From Escherichia coli (GTDB lineage: Bacteria > Pseudomonadota > Gammaproteobacteria > Enterobacterales > Enterobacteriaceae): a stretch of DNA of 64,000 nucleotides. The stretch is taken from assembly GCF_022846255.1 (NCBI RefSeq), contig NZ_AP025682.1. One strand, given 5' to 3'. The position numbers were made by a program, and so were the translations under genes. The notes under the pieces are model-generated. The model was not told the DNA's origin. It made no database searches and saw nothing but the letters and a program-made list of their open reading frames with translations. Positions 6,295 through 63,339 of this stretch are shown piece by piece; position 1 is the first letter of the stretch, and each line of letters opens with the position of its first letter.

Positions 6295-6426
6295 TAAAAG
6301 GTGAGAGCCATCACAAATGTGCGAATATTTGTAGGGACATTACCTGACGACGGCGAGGCCAGTACTGGCGCGGCCTGCAGCGAGATTTACCACTTTGAGA
6401 GTAATTTTTTTAACTACGTTTATTGA

Positions 6427-7941
<1,515 letters not shown>

Positions 7942-58839: not shown

Positions 58840-59085
58840 GCTTATTCTCAGGGCGGGGCGAAATTCCCCACCGGCGGTAAATCAACTCAGTTGAAAGCCC
58901 GCGAGCGCTTTGGGTATGAACTCAAAGGACAGCAGATCCGGTGTAATTCCGGGGCCGACGGTTAGAGTCCGGATGGGAGAGAGTAACGATTCTGTCGGGC
59001 ATGGACCCGCTCACGTTATTTTGGCTATATGCCGCCACTCCTAAGACTGCCCTGATTCTGGTAACCATAATTTTAGTGAGGTTTT
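58840..59085 (+). promoter_or_regulatory. FMN riboswitch (RFN element) in ribB leader
   Basis: Conserved RFN blocks visible: GGGCGGGGCGAAATTCCCCACCGGCGGTAAA ... CCGACGGTTAGAGTCCGGATGGGAGAGAGTAACG, followed by an expression platform reaching the ribB SD (GAGG at about 59078). Confidence 0.8.
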
Positions 59086-59091
59086 TTTACC

Positions 59092-59745
59092 ATGAATCAG
59101 ACGCTACTTTCCTCTTTTGGTACGCCTTTCGAACGTGTTGAAAATGCACTGGCTGCGCTGCGTGAAGGACGCGGTGTAATGGTGCTTGATGATGAAGACC
59201 GTGAAAACGAAGGCGATATGATCTTCCCGGCAGAAACCATGACCGTTGAGCAGATGGCGCTGACCATTCGCCACGGTAGCGGTATTGTTTGCCTGTGCAT
59301 TACTGAAGATCGCCGTAAACAACTCGACCTGCCAATGATGGTAGAAAATAACACCAGCGCCTATGGCACCGGTTTTACCGTGACCATTGAAGCGGCTGAA
59401 GGTGTGACTACCGGTGTTTCTGCCGCTGACCGTATTACGACCGTTCGCGCAGCGATTGCCGATGACGCAAAACCTTCTGATCTGAATCGCCCGGGCCACG
59501 TTTTCCCACTTCGCGCGCAGGCAGGTGGAGTACTGACGCGTGGCGGTCATACTGAAGCAACTATTGATCTAATGACGCTGGCAGGCTTTAAACCGGCTGG
59601 TGTGCTGTGTGAGCTGACTAATGACGATGGCACGATGGCGCGTGCACCAGAGTGCATTGAGTTTGCCAATAAACACAATATGGCGCTCGTGACTATTGAA
59701 GACCTGGTGGCATACCGTCAGGCACATGAGCGTAAAGCCAGCTGA
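59092..59745 (+). CDS. ribB: 3,4-dihydroxy-2-butanone-4-phosphate synthase RibB
   Basis: 217-aa [54 protein letters not shown]... Confidence 0.95.
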
Positions 59746-59778
59746 AAACCGCTGCTTAATTTACTGCCTTAATCAAGA

Positions 59779-59812
59779 AACCGAAGTTGTAGCAGGCTTC
59801 GGTTTTTATTTT
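59779..59812 (+). terminator. Rho-independent terminator of ribB
   Basis: AAACCGAAG-TTGTAGCAGG-CTTCGGTTTTTATTTT: stem plus U-tract 33 nt after ribB stop. Confidence 0.6.
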
Positions 59813-60006
59813 TCCCTGCTATGCAAGATGTTAATTCCGCTTCTCTTTCTATGAGAAAATTTCATTAATATCAGGCATTCTTTTTCATTATGATCAAAAT
59901 CATATAATTGTTCCGTTATTATGCGACCATATGAATATATCCGAAAAAGGATATGTGAAATTTATGCGCTAAATGTTTAGTATTGTTAAATATTAAGGGT
60001 AAAAGG

Positions 60007-60177
60007 ATGTTTATCGCCTGGTACTGGATTGTATTGATTGCTCTTGTTGTTGTGGGTTATTTCCTGCATTTGAAACGTTATTGTCGGGCGTTTCGCCAGG
60101 ACAGAGACGCACTGCTTGAAGCGCGGAACAAATACTTAAACAGTACGAGAGAAGAGACAGCCGAAAAGGTAGAATAA
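60007..60177 (+). CDS. Small single-TM membrane protein (56 aa), uncharacterised
   Basis: ATG 60007 with AAAGGA RBS; MFIAWYWIVLIALVVVGYFLHLKRYCRAFRQDRDALLEARNKYLNSTREETAEKVE, one N-terminal TM helix then a charged tail. Track lists a longer TTG-initiated version from 59983. May correspond to a K-12 small protein between ribB and zupT, but I cannot confirm the name. Confidence 0.5.
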   Translation: MFIAWYWIVLIALVVVGYFLHLKRYCRAFRQDRDALLEARNKYLNSTREETAEKVE

Positions 60178-60234
60178 GGCTTTAGTGAAGCTGGCAGAAG
60201 TTGTCCATGCGCTGGACAACTTCTGATGTTGCTT

Positions 60235-62670: not shown

Positions 62671-63339
62671 TTATTTGCTTGCTAACTCACGGATAAGGTC
62701 TGCCATCGCGTCGATGGATTTGATGCTCTTGGTGTAGATCAAGTACTTACCATTAACGACATAGGCTGGAACCCCCTGGATTTTGGCGACATCATAAGAG
62801 GCTTTCCATTTTTCCAGTGTTTCTTGAACCGCTGGTTCTTTCAGTGCCGCTTCAAAATCCGCCTGACTCATACCTGCGGCATCCAGACCGGTTTTGATAA
62901 AAGCAGCCGGATCTTTACCGTCAGACCAGCGTTCTTTTTTGTCGTGATAAGCCACGTAGTAGGCAAACTTGGCTTTCTTAAACTGAGAGTTAGCATCAAA
63001 TAAGGAAATGCCTGCTGCTTTATCTTTATTGATCAAGACCGCAAAGACTTCGCTTGCTTGTTTGCCGTATTCACCTTTGGTTTCCAGATGGAACGGCGTG
63101 AAAGCAACGATATCTTTCACTTTTTCCGATACCGGACCGGTAACCGCTTTGTCGTACTTGTAACAGAACGGGCAGGCGTAGCTGAATACCTTAATCAGCG
63201 TTTTGTCTGCATTCGGAATAGGTTTTTCCAGAACCATGTAATCCGTGCCTTCGGTAAATGCAGAAGCGGTAAATGAAACAGCCAAAGCTGCGGTAAGCAG
63301 TATGCTTTTAAATAGTGATGAGATCCCTAATTTCGACAT
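62671..63339 (-). CDS. dsbL: Periplasmic thioredoxin-fold oxidoreductase DsbL (DsbA paralogue)
   Basis: 222-aa ORF with signal peptide [27 protein letters not shown] and CPFC active-site motif ([11 protein letters not shown]); 14 nt upstream of dsbI. Confidence 0.88.

Follow-up and report, generated by a model that had tools for sequence, protein, structure and literature searches.

Introduction

The closest described system to the small open reading frame analyzed here is YqiD of Escherichia coli K-12, which has the identical 56-amino-acid sequence, likewise lies between ribB and zupT, and uses the same start codon; it is the same gene. VanOrsdel et al. (2018) printed the identical 56 residues (listed as yqiD, zupT/rib, 3183381-3183551), found the ORF to be positive in tetracycline-inhibited ribosome profiling, and saw the chromosomally tagged protein, YqiD-SPA, by immunoblot in aerobic rich-medium (LB) cultures (PMC6001520). 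The gene carries the identifiers b4756, YQID_ECOLI, and WP_000469266.1, with DUF4051 as a former label at some sources, and its EcoCyc entry, b4756, is cited for yqiD by a 2026 paper. In the literature matching the term yqiD, no function is assigned to the E. coli gene. Most of that literature concerns the yqiD of Bacillus subtilis (ispA), an unrelated gene of the same name, and the "YqiD" mentioned beside ElaB in a discussion of tail-anchored proteins (PMC5525287) is most likely a slip for YqjD.

Beyond the gene itself, two groups of small membrane proteins invite comparison. The modulators MgtS, MntS, AcrZ, and KdpF, with their respective partners MgtA, MntP, AcrB, and KdpABC, are like YqiD in size and in having a single transmembrane (TM) helix, but they share no homology with it, so that the likeness would be one of functional analogy and not of family membership. 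The genes of such small transporter modulators stand alone behind stress-responsive promoters of their own, an arrangement that may serve as a model for YqiD. A second precedent is offered by CydH and CydX, small proteins that join membrane complexes used at low oxygen. YnhF/CydH (a subunit of cytochrome bd-I), YncL, and Blr are, like YqiD, short single-helix proteins with FNR ChIP peaks at their gene regions (ynhF/purR, yncL/ydcX, and ydgJ/blr in Table S5 of PMC3688515); unlike them, YqiD has a much longer conserved tail, predicted to be cytoplasmic, and there is no sequence similarity between it and any of the three.

The locus studied here lies in a window of 64,000 nucleotides of E. coli DNA (the whole stretch that was analyzed; contig NZ_AP025682.1), in which the gene order is ubiK (-), FMN riboswitch, ribB (+), yqiD (+), zupT (-), and ygiD (+). 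The intergenic DNA of this strain is 99.0% identical to that of K-12.

Methods

An ortholog scan that took one genome per species yielded 30 loci encoding a YqiD relative, from Escherichia, Citrobacter, Salmonella, Intestinirhabdus, one Enterobacter, Phytobacter, and Kosakonia; together with four E. coli records these make up the set of 34 loci referred to below. Selection was assessed by Nei-Gojobori dN/dS over codons 1-44, using only pairs in which dS was unsaturated. An FNR position weight matrix (PWM) was built from 62 other ChIP-bound sites of Table S6 (part 1 of 2) of Myers et al. (PMC3688515), and these training sites score from 11.0 to 21.0. Coordinates from that study were placed on the window by means of the site TTGATCATAATGAA from the same table, which is the reverse complement of window positions 59884-59897.

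Results

Identity of the ORF. The ORF at 60007-60177 is an exact match, by exact-sequence look-up, to Swiss-Prot YQID_ECOLI ("Protein YqiD"), and the RefSeq CDS of K-12 MG1655, WP_000469266.1 ("protein YqiD"), has the same ATG start and the same length of 171 nt. It is the catalogued gene yqiD and not a new one; it has had a name, an annotation, and a detected protein product since 2018. Of 5426 complete E. coli genomes, 4432 match the region at 95% identity or above, and in 4424 RefSeq annotates yqiD. A preliminary description, made from the sequence alone, had remarked that genes of this kind are often missed by annotation; this one is present in RefSeq, Swiss-Prot, and EcoCyc, and finding the ORF re-discovers a known gene and adds nothing to the gene catalogue. 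The ribosome profiling and tagged-protein detection proposed there as checks had both already given positive results (PMC6001520).

Reading frame and selection. In the program-made list of ORFs, the maximal frame on the + strand runs from 59983 to 60177, opens with TTG, and encodes 64 amino acids. This start was rejected: in several strains the TTG is no longer in frame, owing to one-base insertions or deletions between the Shine-Dalgarno sequence and the ATG, so the ATG at 60007 is the start, and it is the one that RefSeq uses. The preliminary description had assigned a 56-residue product to 59983-60177; the 56-residue sequence stands and begins at the ATG, whereas the interval given corresponds to the 64-residue translation from TTG. 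It had also noted a good ribosome binding site, and AAGGG at 59995-59999 precedes the ATG by 7 nt. In 34 of 34 loci the ORF is intact, spans 56-70 codons, and opens with an ATG behind an SD-like purine run in the same place.

The length of the ORF lies within what chance would give, since 16-17% of shuffles of the 489-nt, 38% GC intergenic region produce one equally long, and the case for a gene therefore comes from conservation and from the published experiments. Among unsaturated pairs, dN/dS ranges from 0.029 to 0.110. The pooled pN/pS is 0.21 in the yqiD frame, as opposed to 1.15 and 1.47 in the other two frames, and the mean pairwise differences at codon positions 1, 2, and 3 are 0.19, 0.14, and 0.46, a third-position periodicity specific to this frame. 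The yqiD frame is thus shown to be under purifying selection, and its protein is made in E. coli K-12; the proposal of a genuine small-protein gene, together with the comparison of synonymous and nonsynonymous change on which it was to be judged, is borne out.

Protein architecture and family. YqiD is predicted to consist of one TM helix (residues 2-22) and a charged tail of 34 residues (23-56), in keeping with the earlier reading of one TM helix followed by a basic and acidic tail; the regulatory character suggested in that reading would be a guess at what the protein does. The best 19-residue hydropathy window, residues 2-20, has a mean Kyte-Doolittle value of 2.43 and no charge, and the tail contains 9 K/R and 7 D/E. 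Because there is no charge before the helix and there are four K/R in the next eight residues (K23, R24, R27, and R30), the positive-inside rule would place the N terminus in the periplasm and the tail in the cytoplasm. AlphaFold2 (AF2), supplied with the family alignment, returns one continuous helix over residues 2-55, with a mean pLDDT of 71.5 and values of 84-88 in the TM segment.

A profile search of 1.84 billion representatives recovered 24 proteins at E <= 0.001, all of them short and of the same design. Across 28 diverse members the invariant columns are M1, A28, R30, R33, and A35, and I3, W5, W7, and R24 are kept at 90% or above in family alignments. The family consensus reads MFIAWYW, a hydrophobic helix, KRYCRAFRQDRDALL, and then a variable charged tail; YqiD itself shows this pattern, an MFIAWYW helix and then [KR]R-x-C-[RK]-A-[FY]-R-[QH]-[DE]-R-[DE]-A, and the invariant Arg-rich motif of its tail adjoins the membrane segment. 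Searches of Pfam, NCBIfam, and PADLOC gave nothing above threshold for YqiD; the DUF4051 model is absent from the Pfam copy searched, and the sub-threshold HMM matches were DUF2621 (19.8 bits, against a cutoff of 27.7) and NF038143. The RefSeq name YqiD is evidently assigned by protein identity and not by an HMM in the libraries searched. A sequence search of the PDB with YqiD gave no match at E < 0.1.

Layout of the locus. The features on which the following sections draw are these, in window coordinates:
58840-58988, upstream of ribB as expected: FMN riboswitch (Rfam RF00050, 120.9 bits)
59745, + strand: stop of ribB (ORF list)
59776-59807, + strand: intrinsic terminator hairpin of ribB, a 13-pair stem followed by the T-run ATTTTT (terminator scan)
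59884-59897: FNR site predicted by Myers et al., TTGATCATAATGAA on the - strand (Table S6, 3181683 in U00096.2, "end zupT/ribB", at a ChIP-seq peak; PMC3688515)
59890-59903: conserved palindrome ATGATCAAAATCAT, core TGAT-N4-ATCA, of the FNR/CRP-family type (upstream alignment, PWM)
59922-59930, + strand: putative extended -10, TGcGACCAT, in the conserved block; family pattern TGC-[G/C]A-n-[T/C]AT (upstream alignment)
59935-59956, + strand: possible 5'-terminal mRNA stem-loop, arms ATATATCC and GGATATGT, -9.1 kcal/mol (single-sequence folds)
59995-59999, + strand: Shine-Dalgarno sequence AAGGG
60007-60177, + strand: yqiD CDS, 56 codons and stop (RefSeq, YQID_ECOLI match, dN/dS, AF2)
60195-60225: 13-bp stem-loop between the convergent yqiD and zupT stops (terminator scan)
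60235, - strand: stop of zupT (ORF list)

The ORF does sit alone between the ribB terminator and convergent zupT, as had been proposed, and that terminator is the left boundary of the yqiD unit and lies outside yqiD. On the other side, the hairpin at 60195-60225 has a T-rich tail on the + strand only and is likely to be the yqiD terminator; where its sequence differs in other Escherichia, Citrobacter, and Salmonella, both arms have changed together and the stem is preserved (e.g., GAAGTTG/CAACTTC versus GATGTTG/CAACATC). The region of the ribB terminator, 59744-59814, also resembles the enterobacterial sRNA STnc240 over the full length of the Rfam model, but below threshold (29.1 bits, where the gathering score is 55); this may reflect a fragment derived from the ribB 3' end.

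A probable promoter region of its own. The left neighbor of yqiD varies. In K-12-type genomes ribB is adjacent, but in 13 of the 34 loci ribB is not found within 3 kb upstream, and this holds for many of the Citrobacter and Salmonella loci. Insertions recur between ribB and yqiD, a hot spot that in B2 strains is occupied by a four-gene chaperone-usher fimbrial operon, which is present there in 989 E. coli genomes, including ATCC 25922 (L039, 5034-10008) and ST131. K-12 has a fimbrial cluster as well (ygiL, next to an IS2), located beyond ubiK. Whatever the left neighbor, be it ribB or the fimbrial operon, a conserved block of about 120 nt accompanies the ORF, which means that a promoter-sized unit moves with it, and this comparison gives fair support to yqiD having a separate promoter. 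In a 2025 preprint, DNA from upstream of yqiD was cloned before a GFP reporter, and yqiD was one of four genes in which the effect of a natural variant was concordant among GWAS, promoter model, and reporter (bioRxiv 10.1101/2025.06.10.658842).

Within E. coli the gene occurs as two alleles. The divergent one, which RefSeq still names "hypothetical protein" (a simple annotation inconsistency), is found in 989 of 5426 genomes (~18%) and is represented here by E. coli ATCC 25922 (L003 3721-3891) and ST131 (L004 3720-3890), both with WP_001296421.1, and by a chicken isolate (L002 3119-3289, WP_338928550.1). The B2-phylogroup allele (WP_001296421.1) is like the K-12 type in its length, its TM helix, the motif KRYC[KR]AFR[QH]DRDALL, its convergent zupT, and an FNR-type palindrome at -110/-111. 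It is unlike the K-12 type in having only ~68% protein identity, a different C-terminal tail, and the fimbrial operon before the gene. The two classes are similar in DNA from ~118 nt upstream of the ATG to near codon 36, and their dS of 1.56 is far above normal within-species divergence; this suggests that the divergent allele was imported by recombination together with the adjacent fimbrial operon. In enteroaggregative strain 042, a "DUF4051 family" hypothetical gene, orf3334, was higher by qRT-PCR in a mutant of aar, an AraC negative regulator, and was one of only three genes raised in that mutant (PMC5570504); orf3334 may be the yqiD ortholog.

From the putative extended -10, transcription would start near 59936-59938; the Cappable-seq supplements hold no coordinate matching a yqiD start. 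The stem-loop at 59935-59956 has changed arms that still pair in the C. amalonaticus group, but the C. freundii group and Salmonella form it weakly or not at all, and it is therefore not a family-wide feature. As to a structured leader or riboswitch, Rfam matches around yqiD were at chance level only (the FMN riboswitch is that of ribB), RNAalifold on the leader gave -0.88 kcal/mol with no covariation, and the single-sequence fold of the leader has a z-score of -1.48. A leader peptide was likewise discarded, there being no same-strand gene that follows yqiD. Two leader elements within 59950-59992, GTGTGAAAT and a direct repeat of AATGTTTAG/ATTGTTAAAT with 10-bp spacing, are conserved further than the FNR-type site and recur before distant homologs that do not have the palindrome (the L036 and L037 leaders). 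ArcA acting through this TGTTTA/TGTTAA repeat was considered and rejected, as the spacing is 10 bp and not 11, and zupT and ribB are absent from the supplements of an ArcA ChIP study (Park 2013). A Zur or Fur box upstream was rejected as well, the resemblance, judged by eye, extending to half-sites only.

An FNR-type palindrome and an orphan FNR peak. The palindrome at 59890-59903 takes the near-invariant form TATGATC(A/G)AAATCAT in the upstream alignment, and in Enterobacter kpr-6 its arms are kept while the spacer has changed, which is the usual mark of a site for a dimeric regulator. The FNR consensus is TTGAT-N4-ATCAA, and its core is the same as that of the palindrome, which matches 8 of the 10 positions, the core being perfect and the outermost positions being A and T. 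Scored with the PWM, the palindrome reaches 12.4, a value attained by only three sites in the 64-kb window. In each of the 31 loci from Escherichia, Citrobacter, Salmonella, and Intestinirhabdus it is the top match, lying 108-111 nt upstream of the ATG. It is not recognizable before the distant homologs of Phytobacter, Kosakonia, and the metagenomic loci L035-L038. The overlapping site that Myers et al. predicted scores 10.9 by the same matrix and occurs only in some Escherichia loci, being absent from most other genera. We consider the palindrome likely to be the functional FNR site.

The two further strong matches to this matrix are TTGATCTAACTCAC at 6423-6436 (score 15.4), in DNA annotated as uxaC, which read on the opposite strand is the ChIP-bound uxaC/exuT site of Table S6, and TTGGTGTAGATCAA at 62729-62742 (score 13.0), beyond ygiD, which is not among the sites in part 1 of 2 of Table S6 (PMC3688515).

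In Table S5 of Myers et al. (2013), an FNR peak "5' of zupT/ribB" is given at 3181647 (U00096.2), positive by MOSAiCS, NCIS, CisGenome, and ChIP-chip; Table S9 places its summit at 3181575 and its downstream target as "Unknown", and Table S2 has a sigma70 peak at 3181649 with a signal of 395 under aerobic and 1002 under anaerobic conditions, a 2.5-fold difference (PMC3688515). With TTGATCATAATGAA as anchor, the FNR and sigma70 peaks fall at approximately 59918-59933 of the window, 75-90 nt upstream of the yqiD ATG. The FNR peak lies ~17-43 nt downstream of the palindrome, and the sigma70 peak, at about 59918-59931, lies over the putative extended -10. The center of the palindrome, 59896.5, is at -40.5 or -41.5 from the start that this -10 predicts, the start being itself a prediction. 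The peak had no assigned target because yqiD was not annotated in 2013. The orphan peak is likely to sit on the yqiD promoter and to have yqiD as its target, and yqiD is probably FNR-activated; no paper linking yqiD with FNR was found in the literature searched.

The same study reports a weak FNR peak for ribB that MOSAiCS alone calls, and in its Table S12 the expression of ribB and yqiC/ubiK varies ~2-fold with oxygen (PMC3688515).

Discussion

The account that we favor, and regard as probable though by no means strongly so, is that yqiD is a translated 56-codon gene for a single-helix membrane protein, read from a class II FNR-dependent promoter, whose product docks on a larger inner-membrane protein. 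With the palindrome centered ~41 bp upstream of the predicted start, FNR would occupy the position of a class II activator, and yqiD would be turned up when oxygen is absent. Expression would not be strictly anaerobic, since YqiD-SPA is made in aerobic LB. Because YqiD is too small for an enzyme, we would look for its role in docking: speculatively, and by analogy with the small proteins described above, the helix and the invariant Arg-rich juxtamembrane stretch (R24, A28, R30, R33, and A35) might attach it to a larger inner-membrane protein, for which ZupT is a candidate by position only. The fuller proposal, that yqiD is an unrecognized member of the FNR regulon with the orphan peak as its promoter, and that anaerobically induced YqiD becomes part of, or modulates, a transporter or membrane complex that serves the cell without oxygen (ZupT being the positional candidate), is in our judgment as apt to hold as to fail. 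What is new is thus a physiological lead for YqiD, low oxygen and FNR, and a likely target for one orphan FNR ChIP peak.

Alternatively, FNR could occupy this region without controlling yqiD, or the palindrome could serve CRP or another dimeric regulator, with yqiD expressed constitutively as a small membrane protein. We consider this unlikely, though it deserves weight. The palindrome matches the CRP core, TGTGA-N6-TCACA, at 8 of 10 positions by simple counting, just as it does the FNR consensus; however, the position that departs from CRP is a G strongly conserved in its half-site, and the departures from FNR are at the outermost positions, which counts against CRP. The score of 12.4 is also within the range of the ChIP-bound FNR sites used to build the PWM. 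Constitutive expression would accord with the detection of YqiD-SPA in aerobic LB. The peak is listed in Table S9 among many FNR peaks without an expression effect (PMC3688515), but this "no change" entry is uninformative because no downstream gene was annotated in 2013, and the site has 2.5-fold more sigma70 bound under anaerobic conditions. A second FNR study, by ChIP-exo, mentions neither zupT nor ribB in its supplements (Federowicz 2014), which would fit an absence of FNR control.

One could also envision YqiD as a dedicated modulator of ZupT, acting like MgtS on MgtA or MntS on MntP and tuning the uptake of Zn/Fe(II) at low oxygen, a reading by analogy that we find rather improbable. In its favor, the yqiD homolog and zupT converge, with 20-70 nt between them, in 34 of 34 genome loci and in metagenomic locus L035, and in the loci examined the insertions occur on the ribB side of yqiD and never between yqiD and zupT. 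However, these genomes are closely related, so that local synteny is to be expected anyway, and convergent genes are not co-transcribed. Moreover, in L037 and L038, which carry one distant homolog, the gene lies beside ygiC and zupT is not nearby; the linkage to zupT is therefore not absolute.

A small, intergenic protein with a single hydrophobic helix also calls to mind the type I toxins (cf. Ibs, Ldr, TisB, and Hok), which would be restrained by an antisense RNA, and the convergent zupT transcript could enter the 3' end of yqiD. We hold this to be very improbable: yqiD is a core gene, present once and always at the same locus, and purifying selection on it is strong; YqiD-SPA builds up in normal cultures with no harm reported; a conserved charged tail of 34 residues sets the protein apart from minimal toxins; and the searches gave no Rfam antisense family at E <= 1 beyond chance-level matches and no PADLOC match. 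Lastly, an ORF standing open by chance in conserved non-coding DNA (the terminators or regulatory DNA of ribB and zupT), for which its unremarkable length would speak, is excluded, as selection is specific to the frame with pN/pS above 1 in the shifted frames, the ORF is intact in every one of the 34 loci though the C-terminal tails have diverged, and the protein has been detected experimentally (PMC6001520).

Two proteins from metagenome assemblies combine parts of YqiD with parts of its neighbors: P0123 (125 aa) has the first ~70 residues of ZupT joined to a YqiD-like C-terminal half, and P0103 (58 aa) has the N terminus of UbiK joined to a YqiD tail. The convergent orientation of zupT and yqiD makes it probable that both stem from chimeric assembly or from loci that have undergone rearrangement or deletion.
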